From a virus, in IMG/VR virus record IMGVR_UViG_3300046012_000505, positions 37,003 through 101,002 of that record: a stretch of DNA of 64,000 nucleotides; one strand, written 5' to 3'. Every line of letters begins with the position of its first letter. The first letter of the stretch is position 1. Below the pieces are notes generated by a model that saw only the letters and a list, made by a program, of their open reading frames with translations, ran no database searches and was not told where the DNA came from. This document shows, piece by piece, positions 2,755 to 37,030 of the stretch. Both the position numbers and the translations under genes were made by a program.

Positions 2755-3251
2755 TTAGGCGAGAACCCAGCCGGCGGCGGGTCCGGTTGCTCGTCGACCT
2801 CGCTGTATTCCGTCTCGTCCAGCTCGAGCAGCATGTGCTCGAGTTGTTCCGTCGGCATCTGGTCGAGCGATGGAAAGGTGATTTCCTTCCGCTGGACGAA
2901 GTGGCCTTTGAACTTGCCGATTAGCTCGATGGCAGAGAGGGCGGGTTTGTGCATGCCGGCCTGCGCCGCGGCGACGTAGGTCTTCCACGCCTCCTTCATC
3001 AACCGGTTCGGCGTCATCTCCGTCGGGTCGAGATCGGCGTCGACAGGCGCCGCCGGCGCCGGCACGACGATCTGCCGCTCAGCGCGTATCTCGTCGACGC
3101 GGGCGATCACCTGGCCCCAATACGGGCCAGCCTTGATGCCGTCGAGCGCGCCGGCCGAGAAGCCGGACAGCCGCACAGCCTCCGTCTCGCTCTGCCCCTC
3201 AGCGAGAAGGGCGGCGAGATTTTCGTATTTTGGATAGGGAATCTCCGCCAT
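2751..3251 (-). CDS. terS: probable terminase small subunit
   Basis: Directly upstream of terL with ATGA overlap; N-terminal HTH-like segment and ALSAIELIGKFKGHF motif common in TerS. Confidence 0.7.
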   Translation of the reverse strand: MAEIPYPKYENLAALLAEGQSETEAVRLSGFSAGALDGIKAGPYWGQVIARVDEIRAERQIVVPAPAAPVDADLDPTEMTPNRLMKEAWKTYVAAAQAGMHKPALSAIELIGKFKGHFVQRKEITFPSLDQMPTEQLEHMLLELDETEYSEVDEQPDPPPAGFSPK

Positions 3252-3271
3252 GACAGCAGGATAGCGGAAAC

Positions 3272-3286
3272 TCCACGGACCGTGAA
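3272..3286. promoter_or_regulatory. operator palindrome TYCAC-N5-GTGRA
   Basis: TCCACGGACCGTGAA, 20 bp upstream of terS. Confidence 0.65.
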
Positions 3287-3297
3287 GTAGGCGCCGA

Positions 3298-3495
3298 TCA
3301 GCGGACTCGGACCATCACCTCGTTCACTACCCCGCCAGCAGCCCACACCGCGACCGGCTCACCCTGGAACAGCAGACGCCAGCCGCGTCGCCCACCCTCA
3401 TCGAAGGACCGTTGCTGGAGGATCGGGAGCTCGCGCTTGATGCGGTGGAAGTCCTCCACCGTGCGCCGGACCCAGTGAGGCGCTTGGTCGGTCAT
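3298..3495 (-). CDS. hypothetical protein
   Basis: ATG at 3495 overlaps J-domain gene stop. Confidence 0.5.
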   Translation of the reverse strand: MTDQAPHWVRRTVEDFHRIKRELPILQQRSFDEGGRRGWRLLFQGEPVAVWAAGGVVNEVMVRVR

Positions 3496-4145
3496 CGGGT
3501 GGCCGGCGAGGTGAACCGCGGCCATATCTGCATGGTGATCGGCTCGGGCGGCGGCGGAGGATCGACGCGGAAATCGTAGTCGCCGAGCGCGAGAATCGCG
3601 GCGTCCACGGTTTTCTCAGTGGCAGTCATGGCGGCAAGCTGGGTGTCGATCGCCACCATCCTCGACAGCACGATCTCGCCGAGGCGGTTCGGGCGGCCAG
3701 GCTTCGCGGTGATCCTCTCGGCGAGCGCGGCCCAATTCGGCCGCGAGTCGATCAGGCCGGCGCGGTGCTTATCGAGGTGTTCGCGTTGTGCGCGGATATG
3801 CTTGAACATGACCTTGATGAGGTCCGTCCGCGCCACGGCCTGCACGCCGCCTGTCTTGGCGATCTCCTGCAGCGCGGCGTCCAGCGCGTTCGACAGCATG
3901 CCCATCAGGGCGACGTGCGAGTTATCGACCGCCGTCGGATCGATGGCGCCAGTCGCGTCGTATTTCGCGCGGCGAGCCTCGTCCGTCAGCACGTCGTGCG
4001 CGAGCTTGATGCGATCGAATACCTCAGCGTCGCCACCGACGTCGGGATGCGCCTTCTTGGCGAGCCGGCGGTACGCCGTGCGGACCTGCGCGGTCGTGGC
4101 ATCGCGGGGCAGGCCGAGGAGCGCGTAGGGGTCGAGCGGACTCAC
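3492..4145 (-). CDS. J-domain (DnaJ-like) protein
   Basis: DPYALLGL...AYRRLAKKAHPDVGG...RRAKYD with intact HPD motif. Confidence 0.92.
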   Translation of the reverse strand: MSPLDPYALLGLPRDATTAQVRTAYRRLAKKAHPDVGGDAEVFDRIKLAHDVLTDEARRAKYDATGAIDPTAVDNSHVALMGMLSNALDAALQEIAKTGGVQAVARTDLIKVMFKHIRAQREHLDKHRAGLIDSRPNWAALAERITAKPGRPNRLGEIVLSRMVAIDTQLAAMTATEKTVDAAILALGDYDFRVDPPPPPEPITMQIWPRFTSPATR

Positions 4146-5825: not shown

Positions 5826-5947
5826 ATGAGTGCACAGAGAACGAATAACGGGAGTGCGAAGATCAACACTCCCCCGACCGGTGACCACGCGATCGCAGCG
5901 AAGGCGAGCGCGAGTCCCGCGATGGCAATACCCTTACCGACCGTCAC
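5822..5947 (-). CDS. 41-aa hydrophobic membrane peptide (not in ORF track)
   Basis: VTVGKGIAIAGLALAFAAIAWSPVGGVLIFALPLFVLCALI; GTG overlaps the ACP stop and its stop overlaps the next ATG. Confidence 0.55.
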   Translation of the reverse strand: MTVGKGIAIAGLALAFAAIAWSPVGGVLIFALPLFVLCALI

Positions 5948-6201
5948 GCCACCTTCTCCGCGACCTTCCGCTCGACCAGCGCAACCACATCGCTGACGAG
6001 CGCCTTCGCCGGCGGCACATCCGTGATGTCGTCCATCTCGATGCCGAACTCATCCTCGAGCGCCATGGCGAGGTCGACACCGTCGAGGCTGTCGGCGTTG
6101 AGGTCGTCGCGAAGTCGCGCGCTGGCTGTCACGCGCTCGACGTCGACGCCCAGCCGGTCGGCCAGCACGTCGCGCACCCGGTCGGCGATCGACGCGCTCA
6201 T
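5944..6201 (-). CDS. acpP: acyl carrier protein (copy 1)
   Basis: DLNADSLDGVDLAMALEDEFGIEM with phosphopantetheine-accepting Ser. Confidence 0.9.
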   Translation of the reverse strand: MSASIADRVRDVLADRLGVDVERVTASARLRDDLNADSLDGVDLAMALEDEFGIEMDDITDVPPAKALVSDVVALVERKVAEKVA

Positions 6202-6887
6202 GCGATGGGCGTCCAGCCGAAGCCGAGCACCGCCGTCGGGAACGGCTTGTGGACGCGCCGCGGCTCCTCGTCGGGGATCGGGGGCTTGGCGGGGCGCATG
6301 GGGACGAGGACGTTGTCACGCTCCACTGCGTCGTCGGCGAGAGACTGGGTGACCGGCGGGGCCGGGCGCCATGCGGCGAGCTCGGCGTGTAGAGCGTCGA
6401 TGATATGGTCACGCTCCAGCACGGCAGCGCGCAGATCGCGGTTCGCGCCCTCCAACTGCTCGACGCGCTGGTCGGCCGCCCGCTCGCTGCGCACCAAGGC
6501 GTCGAGATCGCCGCGCGAGATGGTGACGGAGTCGGCGGCATGCCCGCCCAGCAGCTTCGCCGCCACCTCGGCGCGGAGCAATTCGGTCTGATAGGTCGCC
6601 GGCGAGCCGTTCTTGAAGCGCTCCCACTCGGCATCGCTGTACACGAACCGGCTCGCGGCATCCCGCATCGCCCGGGCGACAGCCTCCAAATTCGCCGACG
6701 CCGGCTCTCGCCACAACCCGGTATACCGACTTGGCATGGGATCCAGCTTCACCTGCGTCTCACGGTCGCCCCGCATATCGCCGGCATGCCCGCTAGCGCA
6801 CCGCTCCGCATGCACCCCGTACTGCCCGCAGAACACGCAGAACGGCCCCGCCTGCTTCTGGAACTGCGCACCATCGGTGGTCGTCAT
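6198..6887 (-). CDS. hypothetical protein, N-terminal CxxC-H-C motif and coiled coil
   Basis: 229-aa coupled ORF. Confidence 0.6.
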   Translation of the reverse strand: MTTTDGAQFQKQAGPFCVFCGQYGVHAERCASGHAGDMRGDRETQVKLDPMPSRYTGLWREPASANLEAVARAMRDAASRFVYSDAEWERFKNGSPATYQTELLRAEVAAKLLGGHAADSVTISRGDLDALVRSERAADQRVEQLEGANRDLRAAVLERDHIIDALHAELAAWRPAPPVTQSLADDAVERDNVLVPMRPAKPPIPDEEPRRVHKPFPTAVLGFGWTPIA

Positions 6888-9010: not shown

Positions 9011-9910
9011 TCAGCCTCCCACGCTCGCCACCAGTCCGATGGTGGGCGCCTCCTCCGCTATCCGCGCAACCGCCTCTCCGCCATCCAATACCCTCGCCGC
9101 CTCGCGCAGCAGGGATCGAAGCCTTCGCACCTCGGCATCGACCTGGAGCGCTTGGGCCCGCCGCTTCACCTCACCGAGCACGGAGTATTCCGAGGCATCT
9201 GCCGGCATGCCGAACGCCGTGCGGATGCCAGCCAGCGCGGCCTTCGCCTGCTCAGCTTCGGCCGCGGCCTCGACGCGCGCGTTCTCCACGATCTGCTTTG
9301 CCTTAGCGGTCGCCTTGTCGAGAACCTCGCGCGCGCTCTTGGGAGCCGCTAGATATTCCGCGATATCCTTCCCGAGGCGCTCACCGATCTTCCGCCTGGC
9401 GCGCGCATCGACCAAGTTGTCGTGCTCTCGCCGGTAGTAGTCGCTGGCGTGATAGCGATCAGCCGTTTCTCCCGCGCCAGAGCGCGCACCCTGCGCCACA
9501 TTGATCAGCCGCAGCCACGCGCCAGTCGGCAACTCGATCCGCTGCAGCGTCGGCCGCCGGAGGTGACGCCACATCTTGGACCCGCGCACGATCAGGCCGC
9601 AGCCCGACGGAATGTCCTTCAGTGTGCACAGCCCCTGCGGCACCGCGAAGGTAACGCCGCCGGCTATCTTCAAATACTTCTGCCACTTCCCGCCGGTCAG
9701 ATCGGAGCGCAGATCGGCGACCGATATTTTTACCTCGTATGCGACGAGCTCCGGATGGTCGTAGCTCCACCGCTTGAGCGCGTAGACGTCGGGCCGCGAT
9801 TGCCCGCTGCCTAGCACCGCCATGTTCTGCCAGACCCATCGTTCGCCGCCACACCGCAGGTGCAGCGCCAGGTCATTCGCGAGATGATCGTGGCCCCAAT
9901 CGACGGTCAT
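9011..9910 (-). CDS. mmcB: MmcB-family PD-(D/E)xK DNA repair nuclease with C-terminal coiled coil
   Basis: RPDV...YEVKISVADLRSD...KWQKY...FAVP...IPSGCGLI. Confidence 0.8.
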   Translation of the reverse strand: MTVDWGHDHLANDLALHLRCGGERWVWQNMAVLGSGQSRPDVYALKRWSYDHPELVAYEVKISVADLRSDLTGGKWQKYLKIAGGVTFAVPQGLCTLKDIPSGCGLIVRGSKMWRHLRRPTLQRIELPTGAWLRLINVAQGARSGAGETADRYHASDYYRREHDNLVDARARRKIGERLGKDIAEYLAAPKSAREVLDKATAKAKQIVENARVEAAAEAEQAKAALAGIRTAFGMPADASEYSVLGEVKRRAQALQVDAEVRRLRSLLREAARVLDGGEAVARIAEEAPTIGLVASVGG

Positions 9911-9920
9911 CGCAGGTACT

Positions 9921-10241
9921 TCATCGAGCGGCGGGCGTGGTCGGCACGCCGAGTTGCGCCAAGACGGCGGAACTGTGGCCATGCTCGCGGGCGTGACGCA
10001 TGAGGGCTATCATGAAGCCGTCGACATTGACGGCGCCACCTTCGCACCAGCATCGCCCGAGCGTGTCGGCGAGCCGAAGCATGAAGGGGACATTTTCCGG
10101 AAGCGTCACCGTTCGACCGACTGACCCCGCATCGTCATAGCCGACCATCGCGAGGAACCCGATCCCGCGCTCCTCGCACTTCCGCGCCAGATCACTCAGC
10201 GCCGGAGCGATTTCCTCGTCATAGAATTTTTCGTCGTTCAC
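9921..10241 (-). CDS. hypothetical phage protein
   Basis: GTG with GGAGG RBS; FYDEEIAPAL..LA..C...GI motif. Confidence 0.6.
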   Translation of the reverse strand: MNDEKFYDEEIAPALSDLARKCEERGIGFLAMVGYDDAGSVGRTVTLPENVPFMLRLADTLGRCWCEGGAVNVDGFMIALMRHAREHGHSSAVLAQLGVPTTPAAR

Positions 10242-10909: not shown

Positions 10910-11545
10910 TCAGCGCCCACCGCGCCCGATCGATGGCGTCTGTGACGCTGTTCGTGGCGGCCGAGCCGTGTCACTGCCCACGAGCGAGGCGTCAGCGGCC
11001 TGCCTCAGCAACCGATAGAGCGTCGAGCGGTCTATACCGAACGTCGCGGCGACGCGTGAAGCCGATTCCTTCGGGTTGCTCATCAGCAGCCGCGCCTGCT
11101 CGATCTGGTGCGGGGCAAGCTTCGGCCGCCGGCCGCCGACCTTCCCGCGTGCTCGAGCGGCGACAAGCCCGGCATTGGTCCGCTCCCGGATCAGGTCGCG
11201 CTCCATCTCGGCGAGCGCGGCCATCATGTGGAAGAACATCCGACCCGCCGGCGTCGACGTGTCGATCGTGTCGGTGATCGAGCGGAAGGCGACGCCGCGA
11301 TCGGCCAAGGTGCGAACGAGGTCGACCAGCTGGTGCACGGTGCGGCCGAGCCGGTCGAGCTTCCAGACCATGAACGCGTCGCCATCGCGCAGATCGGCGA
11401 TCGCCTTGGCGAGCTCCGGGCGGTCCAGGCGGGATCCGCTGGCCGTCTCGGTGTAGACGCGCTCGCAGCCGGCCCGCTGCAGGGCGTCGAGTTGGAGGTC
11501 GAGGAGCTGGTCATCGGTCGAGACGCGAGCGTAGCCTATCAGCAT
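10910..11545 (-). CDS. small serine recombinase (resolvase/invertase)
   Basis: MLIGYARVST, VWKLDRLGR, AALAEMERDLIRERT, C-terminal HTH GIDRSTLYR. Confidence 0.95.
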   Translation of the reverse strand: MLIGYARVSTDDQLLDLQLDALQRAGCERVYTETASGSRLDRPELAKAIADLRDGDAFMVWKLDRLGRTVHQLVDLVRTLADRGVAFRSITDTIDTSTPAGRMFFHMMAALAEMERDLIRERTNAGLVAARARGKVGGRRPKLAPHQIEQARLLMSNPKESASRVAATFGIDRSTLYRLLRQAADASLVGSDTARPPRTASQTPSIGRGGR

Positions 11546-11566
11546 GGCGGCGGTTCCCCTGAAAGT

Positions 11567-11700
11567 GTTGCACAAACGACAATAACTCTACCATCGCCAC
11601 TTTGATTATGCAACAGCATCAATGAGACTGAGGGGTGGCGCGGTCGCGTCGTCCGATCAACCTTCGCGCGACCGTCGCACAACCCACCGTTTGTGCAACG
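11567..11700. other. res-like recombination site upstream of the resolvase
   Basis: GTTGCACAAACG (11567-11578) and its exact inverse (11688-11699), TTATGCAAC half-site (11606-11614), 28-bp imperfect palindrome 11673-11700. Confidence 0.65.
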
Positions 11701-28086: not shown

Positions 28087-28905
28087 TCATGCGAACCGCG
28101 CCTTTCCGTGCTCGTCCAAGAGAATGGCGAGCGTCGCGTCGGCGACGTCCTCGGCGCTGATGATGCCGAGCGGTGCGGCTTTGCTCCTTGCGGCGGCGGT
28201 GCGGCGCCTTGCGGCGGTGCGGCGCGCGTCGGCGAGTTTCGCAGCGAACGCCGCCCGAAATTCCGGGTCGGCCCAAAGCCGCTTCAGTCGTTTCCTCGAC
28301 ACAACGAGAGACGCATCCATTTTTTCGCGATACGCTGGATCGGCCCACCGCTCACGCATCATCTTCGATTGCCGAGCGCGGACGGCCGGCCTGTCTTTGC
28401 CCCGCCTTACCGCTGCAATGTATTTCTCTCGCCAGACCGGGTCTTGCCAGCGAGCCTTCAGTATCTCGGAAAAGTGGTCACGGTAGGCTTGCACCTTCTT
28501 GCTCGCCGACACGGCCGCGAGCGTTTTCTCCCGGTACTCCGGATCTTGCCATTGGGCCTTTTTTATCTCCGACGCGCGCCTGCGGGCCTCCGGCGTTTTC
28601 CTCGATGCCACCAGGGCCGCCTCTAACTTAGGCCCCGTTTCCGGGTCGGCCCACCGGCGTCTATTCCACTCGCTCAGACGCTCGCGCGCTGACGGATCGG
28701 CCCACCTCTTGCGGCTCGATGCCGATTGCTGGGCCCTCGCCTCCGGTGTTTGCTTCACCGCCTTGATGCTCGCCCTGCGGGATTTGGCGGTATTTGGGTT
28801 TGTCCACGATAGCGCGGTCGAGCACGAGCGCGAGCAGGCACGCCGCTTTGATCTCGCCGGCCGCTCAAACTCGGCGCCGCATTTCGGATTGGCGCAGATC
28901 ATCAT
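28087..28905 (-). CDS. basic protein with N-terminal zinc finger and W-x-D-P helical repeats (NUMOD3-like)
   Basis: CANPKC...CSRSC; six W[AQ]DP plus one WTNP. Confidence 0.7.
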   Translation of the reverse strand: MMICANPKCGAEFERPARSKRRACSRSCSTALSWTNPNTAKSRRASIKAVKQTPEARAQQSASSRKRWADPSARERLSEWNRRRWADPETGPKLEAALVASRKTPEARRRASEIKKAQWQDPEYREKTLAAVSASKKVQAYRDHFSEILKARWQDPVWREKYIAAVRRGKDRPAVRARQSKMMRERWADPAYREKMDASLVVSRKRLKRLWADPEFRAAFAAKLADARRTAARRRTAAARSKAAPLGIISAEDVADATLAILLDEHGKARFA

Positions 28906-29930
28906 CGCCCCTCGACCACAGCGGCGCGCGCCGTTGCCTCGGCCTCGCTGATCTTGAACACCGCTGCGAGCCGGGCGATCGGCGCGCCGTCCCGCACCGC
29001 CTTGGCGAAGCGGGCATCCTCCGACATCGCACCGAGGAATTCCGGTGCCGCAAGGGTGGCGCCATCTCTGGGCGCCCCCGCTGGCTGCGCAGGCCTCGTC
29101 ACGAGCGCAGGTGCCGGCTTCATCACACTCCATGACGGCGCTGCGCCGGCGACGCCCTGCCGCAGCAGACGCTCGATCGCCATCTGGACGGTGATCTTCA
29201 TCTCGGCCGAGATGGCGACCGCCCGCGGGAAGAGCCAGTCGCCGTCTGTGCGGCCCAGGAAGGCGGCGAGCCGGTTGGCATAGGGCCCGGGCTCGTCGGC
29301 ATTGTGGGTAACGGCGACGGCGGCGAGAAAGAGCGCGGCGCGCAGGAAATGCGGCTTTTCGCGATAGGCTTTGACGACCGCGCCCAGGCCGAGTCGGACA
29401 TCGTCCGGCGGATAGTCCGCGATCACCCTGCCGAGCGCGCCGATCGCCATCGTCTCGCCGGACTTCAACTGCTTCGCCCCCGAGGGATGGCGCGGGATGG
29501 AAAGGCCGAGCTCGTCGCAAAGCGACTTGATTGCCAGCGCCCGCTCATCGCCGGCCGCGAGTTTGGCGTGGTGGATCGCCATGGTGGTCATGGCGACGCG
29601 GTTCTGGTTGGTGTCGACGAAGATTGCCGCCTGTTCGGCGAACGAGCTGGCCCTGACGATGACAGCCGGCACATGCGTCTCGCCGCGCCGGCGCGCCGCC
29701 TCGACCCGGTGGCCGCCGTCGATCACGAGCCAGCCATCGCCGTTTTCAGTGGCAATAATCGTCTGGAAGGCTGACCAATTGAACCGCTCTACGAGCCTTG
29801 CGATCAACGCTTGGCTACGCCGGCTTTCGAGATTCCGCTGGTACCGCTCGTCGACCGAAAGTCGCGCGACGGGCAGCCACCCCATCTCCGGCTTCGGTCC
29901 GGGGTCCGCATGTGGGGCGGCCTCGCTCAC
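28902..29930 (-). CDS. ParB/sulfiredoxin-like N-terminal domain protein
   Basis: LSVDERYQR...VIDGGHRVEAA...VPAVI...QAAIFV..N. Confidence 0.8.
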   Translation of the reverse strand: MSEAAPHADPGPKPEMGWLPVARLSVDERYQRNLESRRSQALIARLVERFNWSAFQTIIATENGDGWLVIDGGHRVEAARRRGETHVPAVIVRASSFAEQAAIFVDTNQNRVAMTTMAIHHAKLAAGDERALAIKSLCDELGLSIPRHPSGAKQLKSGETMAIGALGRVIADYPPDDVRLGLGAVVKAYREKPHFLRAALFLAAVAVTHNADEPGPYANRLAAFLGRTDGDWLFPRAVAISAEMKITVQMAIERLLRQGVAGAAPSWSVMKPAPALVTRPAQPAGAPRDGATLAAPEFLGAMSEDARFAKAVRDGAPIARLAAVFKISEAEATARAAVVEGR

Positions 29931-30295
29931 ACCCTCTGCTCCAAGCAGTACCCAAACCCGTACCGCGTCTCGATCTTGTGCGACGCGCCAGCGAGTTTCT
30001 TCCGCAGCCGCTTGACATGCGACCGCACGCTGTCGCCGTTGCCAGCGTCGCCGTATGGGGTCAGCGCGTCGGCGATGTTCTCGTAGGTGAAGATGCGGCC
30101 CGGCCGGCTGGCGAGCAGAGAGAGCAGCGCGTATTCTGTCCGGGTCAGCGGCCGGCGACCGTCGCCGACGATGACCGAATAGTTATCATGATCGAGAAAG
30201 GTGCCGGCGCCTTCGCGAGCGCCGGCAGTCTGGTCCGCCACAGGGGGGAGGGCGGCGGACGGTCGGCATTTCGGGTGCGCGGCGAGGGAGATCAC
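29927..30295 (-). CDS. OmpR/CtrA-type winged-helix DNA-binding domain without receiver domain
   Basis: LTRTEYALLSLLASRPGRIFT...HVKRLRKKLAGASHKIETRYGFGY. Confidence 0.85.
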   Translation of the reverse strand: MISLAAHPKCRPSAALPPVADQTAGAREGAGTFLDHDNYSVIVGDGRRPLTRTEYALLSLLASRPGRIFTYENIADALTPYGDAGNGDSVRSHVKRLRKKLAGASHKIETRYGFGYCLEQRV

Positions 30296-30525
30296 GCGAG
30301 CTTCCCCTCGACCGTCTTGACGACATCGCCGACCGTGACCCAGGACGACTGCTCTTCCGGCGTGATGCGGCCGATGGCGAATTCCTGCTCCAGCGCCAGC
30401 CCGATCTCTTCGAATGTCAGGCTGTCGGCGCCGAGGTCTTCGATCAGGCGCGCAGCGTCCTCGACGGCCGGCGTCACGACGGCAGCGATGATCGTGCGGA
30501 CGCGCGCGCCAATGTCCTGCGTCAT
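30292..30525 (-). CDS. acpP: acyl carrier protein (copy 2)
   Basis: LIEDLGADSL..EEIGLALEQEFAI...TVGDVV. Confidence 0.88.
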   Translation of the reverse strand: MTQDIGARVRTIIAAVVTPAVEDAARLIEDLGADSLTFEEIGLALEQEFAIGRITPEEQSSWVTVGDVVKTVEGKLA

Positions 30526-31271
30526 TGCCCTTCCTCCGATGGATCCCTGATCGCGTCCGGGCTCGGCAGGTACAGCCCCCTCGCCTTCCGCCGCGTGCTG
30601 GCGAGCAGGAACGTGTCGACGTTGATGCCGAGCGCCGGGAAGTCCATCGCCACCCGGCGATGCGCCTGGTCGTAGCCGTAGGCGTCGAAGCCGAGCAGCC
30701 GCGTGACCCGCTCCTCGGCGAACCCGATCAGCCAGGTGACGTACCAGGTCGAGATCGCCCAGGTATGCGCGATCCTCATCATCGGCTCGACGAGGCGGTG
30801 CTGCATCACGCTGGCGTCGACCCAGACGCACCCGCTCAGCGCGATCGGGCAGTCCTCGATCTGATGGGCAAGCTCTGCCGTGACGATGCAGCGGCCCTCT
30901 CTGCCGGCGACGTGCGGGTTCGCGTAGAACAGCCGGCGGGTGACGAGATTGTCGTAGAGCGAATTTTCGAGCTCGATGCGCCGGGTCGCGCAGCAGGCGA
31001 CGACCTTGCCGTCCCGCTCGACCATGACGACGACAACCTCATGCGGGCCGCCGACGTTCGGCCAGAAATCGGGATTGAACGGCTGAAAGAGGATTTGCCC
31101 GGTGTCCCGCTTGATCCGCGCGATGGTGTCGAGATCGTGGGCGAGGTAGACGCGCAGCCCGGCGGCGTCCAATGCGTCGGTGATGGCGATGAGGCGCTTG
31201 CCGACCTCGATGCGGACGAGCTGCGGCAGCAGGGGCGCGGCGATGCCTTCGGCGAGCAGGATGCGGGTCAT
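30522..31271 (-). CDS. putative GNAT/acyl-transferase-fold protein (LuxI/FeeM-like architecture)
   Basis: VVVMVERDGKVVACCATR strands, LSGCVWVD...HRLVEPMMRIA motif-A-like segment, WLIGFAE strand, AYGY; fold call is inference. Confidence 0.5.
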   Translation of the reverse strand: MTRILLAEGIAAPLLPQLVRIEVGKRLIAITDALDAAGLRVYLAHDLDTIARIKRDTGQILFQPFNPDFWPNVGGPHEVVVVMVERDGKVVACCATRRIELENSLYDNLVTRRLFYANPHVAGREGRCIVTAELAHQIEDCPIALSGCVWVDASVMQHRLVEPMMRIAHTWAISTWYVTWLIGFAEERVTRLLGFDAYGYDQAHRRVAMDFPALGINVDTFLLASTRRKARGLYLPSPDAIRDPSEEGQ

Positions 31272-32350
31272 GCCGCAATCCTCTCGCGCTTCAGCACCTT
31301 CGTCGCCGACACGACGCCGCCGTTCTTTCCGCGCGGCCCGTCCGGCATGGCGAGGCTGAGATAGTCGACCTGATCGTTGCCGATCGGCGCCTGGACGCGG
31401 CGCAGGACCGGGCCGCTCCGGGCGACCTGCATCCAATGGCGCGTCATGTCGGCGAAGCGCAGCGTCGGAATTGCCATGATGTTCTTGCCGGCCCAGTCGT
31501 CGGGGAGGCCGAGCTGTCCCGCGAGGATCGGCAGCGTCACGTCCTCGCCGACGACGTTCAGATAGGACGCGCGCCCCGGCATGTTGCGGAGCGATGCCGC
31601 CCATGCCGAGCCGGGGTCGTCGGTGCTCTCGGCGAGGATCGCGCGGAACTCGGGGACATTATTGGCGACCTCGAGGCCGAGCTGATGCACCACCAGATAG
31701 GGCGTCGGAAGCTTTGCCGAGAGCGCCAGGGCGTTGGCGGCTTCCCCGGGCGAGGCAGGGACCGCCGCGACCCATTCCCCCGCGCAGTCGACGACGCGGC
31801 GCACGGTGCGGAGCGTCTTGCGGCCCTCATCGATGAGGAAGGCGCAGGCGCGCGACACGGCGGCTTGGTTGGCCTGCCCTTCGGTATAGCGCAGCTCGGC
31901 GGTGAAATCGGGGCGCAGGGTGAGAGATACCCAGCCCAGCATGCGATGAGCGAAACGCTCGGTTGCCGTCTCGCCGACGGCGCGGCGGATGAACTCGAGG
32001 CTCCCGTGCGCGGCGTGGTGGAGATTGCCGGCATCGTCGCACCAGAAAATTTGATCGGCGTGCGGGCGAAGCTGGGTGACGTTGGAATTGACGGCCGGCA
32101 GCTGACCGCAGACGCCGGGTGCCTCGACCCCGTAGACCTCGCCGACAAACCCATGATCACCTGACTTGGCAAAGAATGCCGCGAGGTTGAACACCGCCTC
32201 CGCCGTGATCCGCGTCGAGCCGGCGACGTAGCGGTCGAAGGTGTCGATCGAGACGCCGGCCGCGTGCGCCAGGGTCTTTGCCCGGACGCCGGTATTGGGA
32301 TAGGTGCGGCGGCGGAGCGCGGCAGCGAAGCGGGAGGCGAGTACGGTCAT
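31268..32350 (-). CDS. XRE HTH fused to a C-terminal PAS-like sensor domain
   Basis: KTLAHAAGVSIDTFDRYVAG HTH; WAGKNIMAIP...ARSGPVL..V.A.I....VDYLSLAMP...VVSAT resembles alphaproteobacterial PAS_5-type domains. Confidence 0.6.
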   Translation of the reverse strand: MTVLASRFAAALRRRTYPNTGVRAKTLAHAAGVSIDTFDRYVAGSTRITAEAVFNLAAFFAKSGDHGFVGEVYGVEAPGVCGQLPAVNSNVTQLRPHADQIFWCDDAGNLHHAAHGSLEFIRRAVGETATERFAHRMLGWVSLTLRPDFTAELRYTEGQANQAAVSRACAFLIDEGRKTLRTVRRVVDCAGEWVAAVPASPGEAANALALSAKLPTPYLVVHQLGLEVANNVPEFRAILAESTDDPGSAWAASLRNMPGRASYLNVVGEDVTLPILAGQLGLPDDWAGKNIMAIPTLRFADMTRHWMQVARSGPVLRRVQAPIGNDQVDYLSLAMPDGPRGKNGGVVSATKVLKRERIAA

Positions 32351-32739
32351 GCCCGCACCCCACTCGCCTTCGCCGCTTCCTCATGCTGGCACAGGAAGGC
32401 ATCGGCCTCCTGCATCATGGTTAGCGTCGCCCGGTAGCAACTTTCGTCTTTGCATGGCGAGAAACCGATGCGGCGATAACGGTCGAGCAGCGCAAAGGCT
32501 TCGTTTCGCTGCTCCTCCGCGTCTTGCAATTGAGCAGTCCGAACGGCGACCGTTGCTTCCGCGCCACGAAGGCCGTCGTCGGTCTCTTGCACCAGCTGAC
32601 AGAAATCCGCGACCGTTTCGTTCAGCTCGTCATTGAGAGCAAGCGCCTTTCGCAGCACGTAGCTTTGAGCACCGGCAAGGGCACAGATCAGGATCACGGC
32701 CAACCAGCCGCCGATGGCCATCAACTCCGCGGCGCTCAC
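32347..32739 (-). CDS. membrane-anchored coiled-coil protein
   Basis: N-terminal hydrophobic helix followed by heptads. Confidence 0.6.
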   Translation of the reverse strand: MSAAELMAIGGWLAVILICALAGAQSYVLRKALALNDELNETVADFCQLVQETDDGLRGAEATVAVRTAQLQDAEEQRNEAFALLDRYRRIGFSPCKDESCYRATLTMMQEADAFLCQHEEAAKASGVRA

Positions 32740-32807
32740 CCGGCCCTCCGCAATTCTGCCCTACCGGCGCCGCAGCAATGCCCCGCGCGCCCTGCGATGG
32801 TCGCGGC

Positions 32808-33293
32808 ATGGAAACGCTGACCAGCCGAGAACTCGACGTGCTGCGATTGCTCGCCAAACACGGCGGAGGCAACAAGACGATCGCCCGCGAGCTCGGCATC
32901 GAACCCGCCACCGTGAAGGCCCGGCTGCGCGAGGCGCTGCGCAAGATCGGGCTGCGCACCAGGACGCAGGCCGCGCTGTGGTATCGAGATCATGGACCCG
33001 GCTGGCAGCGCATAGGCGACATCGCCGGCGAGATCGTGCGAGAGCTTGGCCGCCCCGCTATGACGAGCGACGACCGCGCGCTCTACCGAGACGCCGACGG
33101 GGCGGCCGCTTTTCATGATCGCGGCCACCTACCGAGCCACCAGCGCGACGAAGGCGCCGAACGCAAAGGTGACGAACGCGGCGAGGATGGCGACGCCGAA
33201 CGGTGTGAGATCGCGGCGGCGATGATGCGAACGGAGTATCCCCCTATCCCGTTTGCACACCTCCGGATTGACCGGGCGCGTGATAGGGCTTGA
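32808..33293 (+). CDS. LuxR/GerE-type HTH protein, antisense to the surrounding operon
   Basis: LTSRELDVLRLLA..G.GNKTIARELGIEPATVKARL....RKIG.RTRTQAALW; C-terminal half low complexity. Confidence 0.75.
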   Translation: METLTSRELDVLRLLAKHGGGNKTIARELGIEPATVKARLREALRKIGLRTRTQAALWYRDHGPGWQRIGDIAGEIVRELGRPAMTSDDRALYRDADGAAAFHDRGHLPSHQRDEGAERKGDERGEDGDAERCEIAAAMMRTEYPPIPFAHLRIDRARDRA

Positions 33294-33308
33294 CGATGGG
33301 GAATTCAC
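33129..33308 (-). CDS. small membrane protein downstream of cro
   Basis: GTG overlaps cro stop; C-terminal TM FGVAILAAFVTFAFGAFVALVA. Confidence 0.5.
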   Translation of the reverse strand: MNSPSSSPITRPVNPEVCKRDRGILRSHHRRRDLTPFGVAILAAFVTFAFGAFVALVAR

Positions 33309-33502
33309 GCAGCCGCCTCTTGACCGAGAAAGCCGTCCGGCAGGGTGACGCGCTTTTTCTTGGCGAGGGCGGCCACGGCACGGCGGTAGGGCCACGAGAC
33401 CCCGCGAACGCGCCAGTTGCCCACCGTGCTGAGGTTTCGGACGCCGCAATGCTCAGCGACGATTGCGATGCCACCGAGGGCGTCTATGAGTTCCGCGTGC
33501 AT
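33305..33502 (-). CDS. cro: Cro-like regulator
   Basis: LIDALGG...VA..CG....STVGNWR.RG; divergent from cI. Confidence 0.8.
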   Translation of the reverse strand: MHAELIDALGGIAIVAEHCGVRNLSTVGNWRVRGVSWPYRRAVAALAKKKRVTLPDGFLGQEAAA

Positions 33503-33513
33503 CGCGCAGCATA

Positions 33514-33587
33514 TTCACATTCCGTGGATGCTGTCCAGCGCGAAACGTTGATTTTGTTTTAGGCGAAATTAATCCACATTCTGACAA
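33514..33587. promoter_or_regulatory. cI/cro intergenic operators
   Basis: TTCACATTCCGTGGA 33514-33528; degenerate TCCACATTCTGACAA 33573-33587 abutting the cI ATG. Confidence 0.75.
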
Positions 33588-33868
33588 TGAGAAACGGTAG
33601 CACGGCCAAGCAATTGAAGGACACCGGCGACCGGCTCGCCCGGGCGCGCGAAGCGCTCGAACTCAGCCAGGTCGAGATATGCCGCAACATCGGCATAGGC
33701 GAAACGACGTGGAATAATTGGGAAAAGGCGAAGCGACGCCCCGACCCGTTGGCGCTGGTGCGATTCGCCAACGCCTACGGCATTTCCCTCGACTACATCT
33801 ACCGCGGCGACACCCAAGCCCTGAGCAGCCGCATCCTCTCTAAGATACTAGGCCGCAGAGCAGGGTAG
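33587..33868 (+). CDS. cI: CI-like XRE repressor (HTH only, no S24 peptidase domain)
   Basis: GDRLARAREALELSQ....IGI..TTWNNWE...RRP...ISLDYIYRG. Confidence 0.85.
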   Translation: MRNGSTAKQLKDTGDRLARAREALELSQVEICRNIGIGETTWNNWEKAKRRPDPLALVRFANAYGISLDYIYRGDTQALSSRILSKILGRRAG

Positions 33869-35563: not shown

Positions 35564-37030
35564 ATGCGCATCGTCCAACTCACCGCCGAGAATTTCAAAC
35601 GTCTCCGCGTCGTCAGCATCACGCCGGACGGCAACCTCGTCCAGATCACCGGCCGCAATGGTCAAGGCAAGAGCAGCGTCCTGGATTCGATCTGGGCCGC
35701 ACTCGGCGGCAAGGACGCCATCCAGAGCGTGCCGATCCGCAAGGGCGCCGAGACTGCCGCCATCACGCTCGACCTCGGCGACATCAAGGTGACGCGCAAA
35801 TTCACCGCCGCCGGCGGCACCACGCTGACCGTCGAGAACGCCGACGGCGCGCGCTACCCGTCGCCTCAGAAGATGCTCGACGGGCTGATCGGCGCGATCG
35901 CCTTCGACCCGCTCGAGTTCTCGCGCATGCAGCCGGCGCAGCAGTTCGCGCAGCTGCGGTCCCTGGTGAAACTCGACGTCGACATCGACGACCTGGACGC
36001 CAAGAACGCGACCGACTTCGCCAAACGCACGGAGATCAACCGGGAGAGCAAGCGCCTCCGCGCCGTGCTGGCCGGCATGCCCGCCGTGCCAGACGATTTG
36101 CCCCCCGATCCGATCGACACTGCGGCGCTGGTCGACGAGATCGCCAGGGCCGGCGAGCATAACGCCGACATCGAACGGCGCCGCGGCAACCGGAAGACCG
36201 CCGCCGACTCGGTCGAGCGCCTGACCGCCGAAATCAAGGAGATCAACGACAGCCTGCCCGGCAAGCTCGCCGCCAGCGAACGCCGCTATGCGGCCATCGT
36301 CGCCGATCTGCAGGCCCAGATCGAGGCGCTGCAGGCCCGCATCGTCAAGGTCAACGCCGACGCCGACGAGGAGCGGACCACCTTCAGCGACGAGGCCGCC
36401 AACGAGACTCGCGAGCGGGCCGAGCAGTTGACCGCCCTGCAGGCGAAGATCGACGCCGCCCAACCCCTTCCCGACCCGATCGACGCCGCCGAGGTCCGCG
36501 CCAGGTTGACCGCCGCCACGGCGACCAACGAGCAGATCGCCCAGCGCACCGCCCGTGCCAAGGCGGAAGCCGACGCCGTAGCCAGCGAGGCGGCCGCCGA
36601 CACGCTCACCCAGGCGATGGCCGACCGCGGCGCTACCAAGGCCAAAGCCATCGCGGCCGCCGCCATGCCCGTCCCCGATCTCGGCTTCGGCGACGGCATC
36701 GTGACGCTCAGCGACCTGCCGTTCGATCAAGCGAGCTCCGCCGAGCAGCTGCGCGTCTCCTGCGCGATCGCCATGGCGATGAACCCGAAACTCCGCGTGC
36801 TGCGGATCAAGGACGGTTCGCTGCTCGACGAGGACGGACTCGCGCTGCTGGCGACGATGGCCGACGAGCACGACACGCAGATATGGATCGAGAGGGTGGC
36901 AAGCGGCGACAAGGTCGGGATCGTGCTCGAGGACGGGCATATCCAGGGTGTCGAGCAACCGCCAGAGCCAGAGCCGGTTGCCGAACTGCACGACCTGTCC
37001 ATCGGCGTGCCAGCCGGACAACTCATCTAG
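35564..37030 (+). CDS. Rad50/SbcC-like ATPase with long coiled coil
   Basis: ENFKRL, ITGRNGQGKSS, ASSAEQ signature, IKDGSLLD. Confidence 0.88.
   Translation: MRIVQLTAENFKRLRVVSITPDGNLVQITGRNGQGKSSVLDSIWAALGGKDAIQSVPIRKGAETAAITLDLGDIKVTRKFTAAGGTTLTVENADGARYPSPQKMLDGLIGAIAFDPLEFSRMQPAQQFAQLRSLVKLDVDIDDLDAKNATDFAKRTEINRESKRLRAVLAGMPAVPDDLPPDPIDTAALVDEIARAGEHNADIERRRGNRKTAADSVERLTAEIKEINDSLPGKLAASERRYAAIVADLQAQIEALQARIVKVNADADEERTTFSDEAANETRERAEQLTALQAKIDAAQPLPDPIDAAEVRARLTAATATNEQIAQRTARAKAEADAVASEAAADTLTQAMADRGATKAKAIAAAAMPVPDLGFGDGIVTLSDLPFDQASSAEQLRVSCAIAMAMNPKLRVLRIKDGSLLDEDGLALLATMADEHDTQIWIERVASGDKVGIVLEDGHIQGVEQPPEPEPVAELHDLSIGVPAGQLI

Follow-up and report, generated by a model that had tools for sequence, protein, structure and literature searches.

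Why does a temperate phage carry, just after its cI- and cro-type genes, a gene for an acyl carrier protein (ACP) coupled to genes for an acyltransferase-like enzyme and a DNA-binding regulator? The question is raised by a stretch of 64,000 nucleotides (hereafter the window; positions 37,003 to 101,002 of the IMG/VR virus record IMGVR_UViG_3300046012_000505), in which an earlier note, made from the letters alone, had proposed that the products of three such genes make and sense a diffusible acylated molecule. We find that the conserved unit is a two-gene cassette, made up of the regulator and the enzyme, which follows directly on cI/cro in the early operon of temperate phages of alphaproteobacterial type. 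With a probability that we put at roughly 40%, this cassette joins an ACP-dependent N-acyltransferase to a sensor-regulator in a position similar to that of lambda CII.

The three open reading frames are present where they had been reported, all on the minus strand: a regulator of 360 amino acids (aa) at 31268-32350, an enzyme of 249 aa at 30522-31271 and a carrier protein of 77 aa at 30292-30525, with ATGA stop/start overlaps readable in the sequence at 31268-31271 (regulator/enzyme) and 30522-30525 (enzyme/ACP). The distance of about 1 kb from cro given in the note also holds, since 955 bp separate the 360-aa gene from the cro-like gene that was found. Overlaps of 4 bases also continue the string to a 130-aa gene upstream (ATGA) and to a winged-helix gene and then a ParB-like gene downstream (GTGA). 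Because 4-base overlaps are common in GC-rich phage operons, they indicate co-transcription and coupling but no special link, and because the trio sits in a longer coupled string, the overlaps alone do not single it out.

What kind of protein is the 249-aa product? It has no match in Pfam (E≤1), NCBIfam, PHROGs or PADLOC, and a tblastn search against phages gave none either. Run exhaustively against 1.84 billion cluster representatives, phmmer retrieved 108 relatives at E≤1e-3, three of them at E≤1e-30, all unnamed or "hypothetical" proteins of about 230-290 aa, and 96 of these relatives made up the family alignment used for AlphaFold2 and for the profile checks. The model obtained with this alignment (predicted local distance difference test, pLDDT, 93.7; predicted template modelling score, pTM, 0.90) shows the mixed alpha/beta GNAT fold with its V-shaped beta4-beta5 cleft; a single-sequence AlphaFold2 model with a pLDDT of 34 was discarded. 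FeeM was the top Foldseek match of the model and gave the longest structural alignment, followed by NatD, Naa60 and other GNATs, and SbzI was also among the matches (E 7e-4). On the predicted structure, then, the 249-aa protein is a GNAT-fold protein, which bears out the GNAT-like strand and helix order that the earlier note had seen, and it carries a 38-residue N-terminal extension relative to FeeM. At the sequence level the ties to described families are faint: of the 96 relatives, only 3 reach Acetyltransf_1, at best with E 7e-4, the family profile reaches AAC(6′) in the PDB at E 0.044, a BFVD search with the protein gave generic viral GNATs only, and Pfam families of N-acyltransferases, Acetyltransf_5 for instance, do not match it.

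Membership of the LuxI family was considered and, on the sequence evidence, rejected. The 249-aa protein has no Autoind_synth (PF00765) match at E≤1, in line with the remark in the note that the canonical LuxI N-terminal residues are not evident, and none of the 96 family members matches this family at E≤0.01. No LuxI-type chain was among the matches listed by Foldseek or VIA, a result that does not exclude a family left unlisted.

A feature that separates the phage enzymes from their plasmid-borne relatives lies in motif A. The alignment and tree of the family resolve two clades, one with the pyrophosphate-binding P-loop and one without it. In the first, the motif-A loop is typically F/Y-R-G-R/K-G-L, and all eight plasmid-borne homologues inspected belong here and keep F-R-G-R-G-L, whereas in the second the same position holds a variable, non-glycine loop. 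The second clade contains the three phage proteins known to us, that of the window and those of two proviruses described below (L002 and L014), on two separate branches, and in all three the R/Q-x-x-G-x-G/A loop is absent at the aligned position. The family core residues R97, Y116, W150, R166, W176 and G199 are kept in the phage GNATs. About 55 further P-loop-less members are known from short metagenome contigs alone; a degenerate DNA pattern designed on a helix motif of this clade matched 41 viral loci, none of which encodes a member of the GNAT family. The study of SbzI describes a substituted P-loop, found in FeeM too, as a hallmark of GNATs that depend on a carrier protein (PMC11685415). 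A substituted P-loop and an adjacent, coupled ACP gene occur together here as they do in those enzymes, the ACP adjacency being confined to this lineage. P-loop loss is the strongest sequence-level argument against the usual use of acyl-coenzyme A (acyl-CoA) by the phage enzyme, although it would be seen in a pseudoenzyme as well.

The plasmid-borne homologues come from Roseibium, Sinorhizobium, Rhizobium, Mesorhizobium, Bradyrhizobium and Azospirillum and are annotated only as hypothetical; the Roseibium protein, for example, matches the profile of the present family at E 1.5e-70. An ATP-grasp gene is adjacent in 3 of the 8 loci and ectB in one. The ATP-grasp neighbours are annotated as 'biotin carboxylase subunit family' (L006, L007 and L012; Sinorhizobium and Rhizobium symbiosis or accessory plasmids), and in R. 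bangladeshense the P-loop GNAT gene lies downstream of ectB and near nifHD. These rhizobial neighbourhoods suggest an uncharacterised small-molecule pathway. No ACP or HTH-PAS gene is annotated near the plasmid GNATs; as for helix-turn-helix (HTH) genes, the exceptions are a 69-aa HTH gene at one locus and a small divergent HTH gene in Roseibium.

The 77-aa protein is a true but divergent ACP. It scores above the cut-off for PF00550 PP-binding (24.3 bits vs 20.8), matches the NCBIfam ACP model at E 6e-12, ACPs of the PDB at E 3e-8 and the ACP family PHROG 5934, and its D34-S35-L36 aligns with the ACP attachment site, so that the intact DSL serine (Ser35), the predicted phosphopantetheine site, was correctly recognised in the note. 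Its divergence is apparent from a word-indexed search of 5.8 billion proteins, which found a single relative, with 48% identity. The phage has a second ACP, of 85 aa (5944-6201, minus strand; PP-binding E 2.9e-10), which bears a DSL motif and is 40% identical to that of the cassette. That a single phage has two of them may point to a broader role for carrier proteins. Upstream of the second ACP gene, and coupled to it, lies a gene for a 229-aa protein that belongs to no known family.

Do the enzyme and the ACP fit each other? In complex prediction the pair reached an ipSAE of 0.41 (runs 0.36-0.53), compared with 0.01 for the best of three controls; the runs agreed in at least 88% of contacts, and the pLDDT of the partner was at least 85. 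The mark passed by this pair is reached by 58 of 80 solved complexes and by 2 of 110 mismatched pairs, and among the passing scores those at or below 0.60 comprise only 7 of the 80 solved complexes and both of the mismatches. The prediction thus lends weak support to GNAT-ACP docking. Because adjacency and P-loop loss had made such a guess reasonably likely beforehand, the docking is a small increment and not a proof.

The notion of a two-gene unit comes from the comparison of switch regions. L002 is a provirus of 58 kb (92% complete) in which the order after its own cI and cro-like genes is an antisense GerE gene, a homologue of the HTH regulator, a 94-aa insert, a GNAT homologue and a gene for a 112-aa protein that is not an ACP; identity to the window is 41-46% for the HTH protein and 45% for the GNAT. 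In L014, a provirus of 53 kb, the order is cI, cro, HTH homologue, GNAT homologue, GcrA and methyltransferase, with identities of 29% and 27% and a stop/start overlap between the HTH and GNAT genes. The divergence of the two proteins is therefore parallel (41/45% in L002 and 29/27% in L014). A tblastn comparison of the window with the L002 region found the cassette genes alone in common, cI and cro not being shared, and therefore HTH and GNAT behave as a co-inherited, exchangeable two-gene module. Just upstream of cI, L014 also has a gene (2953-4032, plus strand) for a 359-aa protein which, by eye, has a LuxR-type HTH at its C-terminus and a long PAS-like N-terminal region, and which may be another sensor-regulator at the switch.

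A close soil relative, with about 85-95% nucleotide identity, is present in contigs of a second soil run, where the low depth of the metagenome and the 80% likeness used make the results tentative. One contig appears to span ACP and GNAT, and another joins 32352 directly to 32744, that is, the HTH gene to the GerE region, skipping the 130-aa gene, which looks like a recent insertion or deletion. Tentatively, the ACP is a lineage-specific addition and the 130-aa gene a variable insert. Several other locus scans, over genome, metagenome and viral contigs, turned up no relative. The co-occurrence of the trio expected in the earlier note is thus borne out for HTH and GNAT, which are together in the two distant proviruses and in the close relative; the ACP accompanies them in the close relative only and is missing from both distant ones.

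The 360-aa regulator can be divided into an XRE-type HTH (residues ~7-60), a strongly conserved central domain without family match (~95-210) and a PAS-like C-terminus (~214-356). The HTH call rests on a weak HTH_31 match (E 3.9e-4) whose score of 21.1 bits falls short of the Pfam cut-off, 27, and recurs unchanged in the L002 homologue, and the feature neighbours of the regulator in ESM Atlas are HTH_3 clusters. No PAS family of Pfam matches it at E≤1, the hidden Markov model (HMM) of PF07310 (PAS_5) found nothing in the phage genome at E≤10 nor in five large plasmids, and the profile of its C-terminal part gave only chance-level matches in the PDB, none of them PAS. For the ESM-Atlas models of the regulator (pLDDT 0.65) and of its 29%-identical L014 homologue (pLDDT 0.60), the nearest structural neighbour is in each case a PAS_5 cluster, with TM scores, normalised to the PAS protein, of 0.67 (residues 214-356) and 0.58 (residues 85-351), and for the L014 homologue further rows containing PAS/GGDEF follow below this cluster. 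A PAS-like C-terminus is therefore likely on these low-confidence models; the corresponding claim of the note stands as far as structural neighbours go and finds no echo in PAS profiles. No Autoind_bind family matches the regulator, and tblastn searches with it against phages and plasmids gave no match. The note had held that its proposal would fall if the enzyme were no GNAT, if the regulator had no PAS-like C-terminus or if the genes did not co-occur; on none of the three did our results fully contradict it, co-occurrence being partial.

How might such a cassette work? The phage lineage would have gained an ACP of its own for the cassette. The P-loop-less GNAT may take an acyl group from a phosphopantetheine-bound donor, which would be the phage ACP here and a host ACP in the relatives, and may pass it to an amine acceptor in the manner of SbzI and the FeeM-type N-acyl amino acid synthases. 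The product, presumably a small molecule, or the acyl-ACP state that it reports, would then feed back on the neighbouring regulator, the putative sensor, and so tune early or lysogeny transcription. Between cro and the cassette there is an antisense GerE gene, an arrangement conserved in L002, and for this reason a promoter near the head of the cassette reading towards the repressor would resemble an establishment promoter; such a promoter is hypothetical, the promoter scan having found none there. The GerE gene may head a transcript in the repressor direction. Taken to its furthest extent, this scheme would amount to self-contained phage communication of a new chemical type: the GNAT, supplied by the phage ACP or, in the relatives, by a host ACP, would make a diffusible N-acyl compound, and the HTH-PAS protein at the CII position would bind it and drive transcription that runs via the antisense GerE gene to the repressor. 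We consider this extended version quite unlikely; if true, phage density would govern lysogeny with no need for LuxI, LuxR or a peptide.

Several observations weigh against an ACP-dependent acyltransferase with a sensor-regulator. The product, the ligand and the DNA target are all putative. The structural scores tie FeeM with CoA-dependent GNATs and do not separate them, and the loss of the P-loop would fit a pseudoenzyme just as well. The PAS call comes from models with a pLDDT of 0.60-0.65, not accompanied by a PAS HMM match. There is no PP-binding domain anywhere in the L002 or L014 proviruses, and for this reason the ACP is not a conserved partner; the second ACP elsewhere means that ACPs may serve another purpose in the phage. 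Finally, searches of the phage found no acyl-ACP synthetase (AMP-binding enzyme), phosphopantetheinyl transferase or ketosynthase, so activation and loading of the ACP must rely on the host.

What else could the cassette do? The GNAT might acylate or acetylate a macromolecule, be it a host or phage protein or, as Mom of phage Mu does, DNA, as an early host-takeover or regulatory step, in which case the HTH protein would be an ordinary co-inherited early regulator and the ACP either the donor or unrelated; we consider this rather unlikely. That the P-loop is gone across a whole clade, and that a tight, coupled HTH/GNAT pair is conserved without the ACP in two proviruses, would also fit a GNAT that is no longer catalytic and serves the HTH protein as a ligand-binding or regulatory partner, be it as co-repressor, as anti-repressor or as sensor subunit, with the ACP as a lineage-specific addition. 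We find this clearly improbable, because the phage proteins keep the six core residues named above, because FeeM and SbzI are active without a P-loop and because an ACP gene adjoins the GNAT gene in this lineage.

Two further explanations look outside the switch itself. The FeeM-like fold with an adjacent ACP, and the fact that PHROG classes phage ACPs as moron or auxiliary metabolic genes, are what one would expect if GNAT and ACP formed a lysogenic-conversion moron that made a membrane aminolipid or an acylated envelope component, in the way of OlsB, and thereby altered the host surface. This is very improbable: the genes lie inside an early operon of lytic direction, which is not a moron position, an Acetyltransf_5-like N-acyltransferase match in Pfam is lacking, and the conserved pairing with a regulator would be left unexplained. 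The order of an HTH gene followed by a GNAT gene could also be read as a module of toxin-antitoxin or abortive-infection type, in which the HTH protein would be the antitoxin and the GNAT a toxin that acetylates aminoacyl-tRNA. Known GNAT toxins (TacAT/AtaRT) are proteins of about 160-175 aa that use acetyl-CoA and are paired with small ribbon-helix-helix (DUF1778) antitoxins. Here the enzyme has 249 aa and no P-loop, the protein encoded upstream has 360 aa with an HTH and no DUF1778, a 94-aa gene separates the pair in L002, and PADLOC gives no match to any of the cassette proteins, all of which makes a toxin-antitoxin function extremely unlikely. We therefore retain, at the tentative level given above, the pairing of an ACP-dependent N-acyltransferase with a sensor-regulator.

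The surroundings of the cassette are those of a temperate soil phage with a classic cI/cro-type switch. The 101-kb virus record, of which the window is part, is linear, 89% complete according to CheckV and of about 65% G+C; a soil metagenome run shares 86% of the sampled words of the window, and no RNA run is among the sequencing runs listed for the stretch. An XRE-type repressor-like gene (33587-33868, plus strand; HTH_31 E 3.5e-11, HTH_3 E 2.8e-10, and PHROG transcriptional repressor families) is divergent from the gene of a cro-like small DNA-binding protein (33305-33502, minus strand; phrog_8008 E 2.5e-7) at the head of the minus-strand operon, which continues with the 130-aa gene (32347-32739, minus strand; no Pfam, PHROG or PADLOC family, and an ATGA overlap with the regulator gene), the regulator, the GNAT, the ACP, a winged-helix gene, a ParB-like gene, GapR, GcrA and an N6/N4 DNA methyltransferase. 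Antisense to this operon, in the interval from cro to the cassette, lies the gene of a regulator with a GerE/LuxR-C-type HTH (32778-33293, plus strand; GerE E 4.2e-13); its L002 counterpart (6156-6650, minus strand; E 5.3e-16) is 58% identical over the HTH and conserved in position and orientation. The winged-helix gene (29927-30295, minus strand; Trans_reg_C E 6.5e-18) encodes a stand-alone OmpR/CtrA-type protein of 122 aa with no receiver domain, for which tblastn found no match in the L002 or L014 proviruses, and GTGA overlaps join it to the ACP gene on its upstream side and to the ParB-like gene (DUF6551; 28902-29930, minus strand) on its downstream side. A promoter/terminator scan placed a promoter-like site just upstream of cro (33537-33508, minus strand) the only further entries being a plus-strand site within the repressor gene and a single terminator-like site, with none between the GerE gene and the cassette, and a repeat search returned only short, chance-level repeats. 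Elsewhere in the window there are genes for a DnaJ-domain protein (3492-4145, minus strand; E 1.1e-16), an MmcB-like protein (9011-9982, minus strand) and, by eye, a serine recombinase or resolvase (10910-11575, minus strand).

Why would the cassette matter? Signalling by which phages set lysis against lysogeny is known with peptides (arbitrium) and, since more recently, with canonical LuxI/LuxR modules of Roseobacter prophages; the cassette is a candidate assembled from other parts, namely a P-loop-less GNAT of an unannotated family, an ACP of the phage and an HTH protein whose sensor domain is probable. It occupies one and the same regulatory position in three phage switch regions that are otherwise unrelated. 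Phage ACPs, common but so far without explanation, gain a candidate enzymatic partner. Moreover, the components are small and easy to express, which makes them accessible to routine biochemistry.

How does the cassette compare with known systems? Related by sequence is the P-loop-bearing plasmid clade of rhizobia, Azospirillum and Roseibium, which belongs to the same sequence family and has the same core residues but keeps the CoA P-loop and resides in plasmid islands. FeeM/FeeL, a synthase of N-acyl amino acids and its ACP from soil environmental DNA, resembles the phage pair in the GNAT fold, the substituted CoA P-loop and the adjacent ACP gene; on the other hand, FeeM and the phage GNAT are about 12% identical with no detectable common sequence family, the phage cassette lies with a regulator in an early operon and not in a biosynthetic cluster, and the phage ACP is not conserved in the relatives. 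SbzI/SbzG of altemicidin biosynthesis likewise includes a P-loop-substituted GNAT, SbzI, to which a carrier protein delivers the acyl group, but it belongs to an actinomycete secondary-metabolite cluster, has a different acceptor and shows no sequence relationship. With lambda CII, a 97-aa activator without sensor domain, the cassette shares the position directly after cro, with no sequence or domain similarity. The arbitrium system of Bacillus phages employs a secreted peptide and a tetratricopeptide-repeat receptor, and what AimR-AimP would have in common with the cassette is the concept of a signal, made by the phage, which biases lysogeny, again with no sequence or domain similarity.

A parallel in function would be the xre-luxR-luxI cassettes of Roseobacter prophages, which set the lysis-lysogeny decision and are exchanged between phages (PMC13345283). 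In these cassettes, which belong to prophages of Alphaproteobacteria, the XRE-type gene adjoins genes for a receptor and for a synthase of acyl-ACP type. Common to both are an XRE-type gene, a regulatory cassette position and the character of an exchangeable module, and, as in the Roseobacter modules, the cassette is all that the otherwise different switch regions of the window and L002 have in common. The phage cassette differs in having neither LuxI (Autoind_synth) nor LuxR (Autoind_bind) and in its GNAT family; its candidate receptor is an HTH plus PAS-like protein, and the neighbouring GerE protein matches HTH-type families only. Since the control of lysogeny by a prophage acyl signal has already been described (PMC13345283), the cassette, if it signals, is a variant and not a new principle. 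New in any case, whatever it does, are a GNAT family of about 108 clusters split into P-loop and P-loop-less members, an enzyme that is a candidate partner of a phage ACP, and the conserved pairing of HTH and GNAT in phage switch regions.

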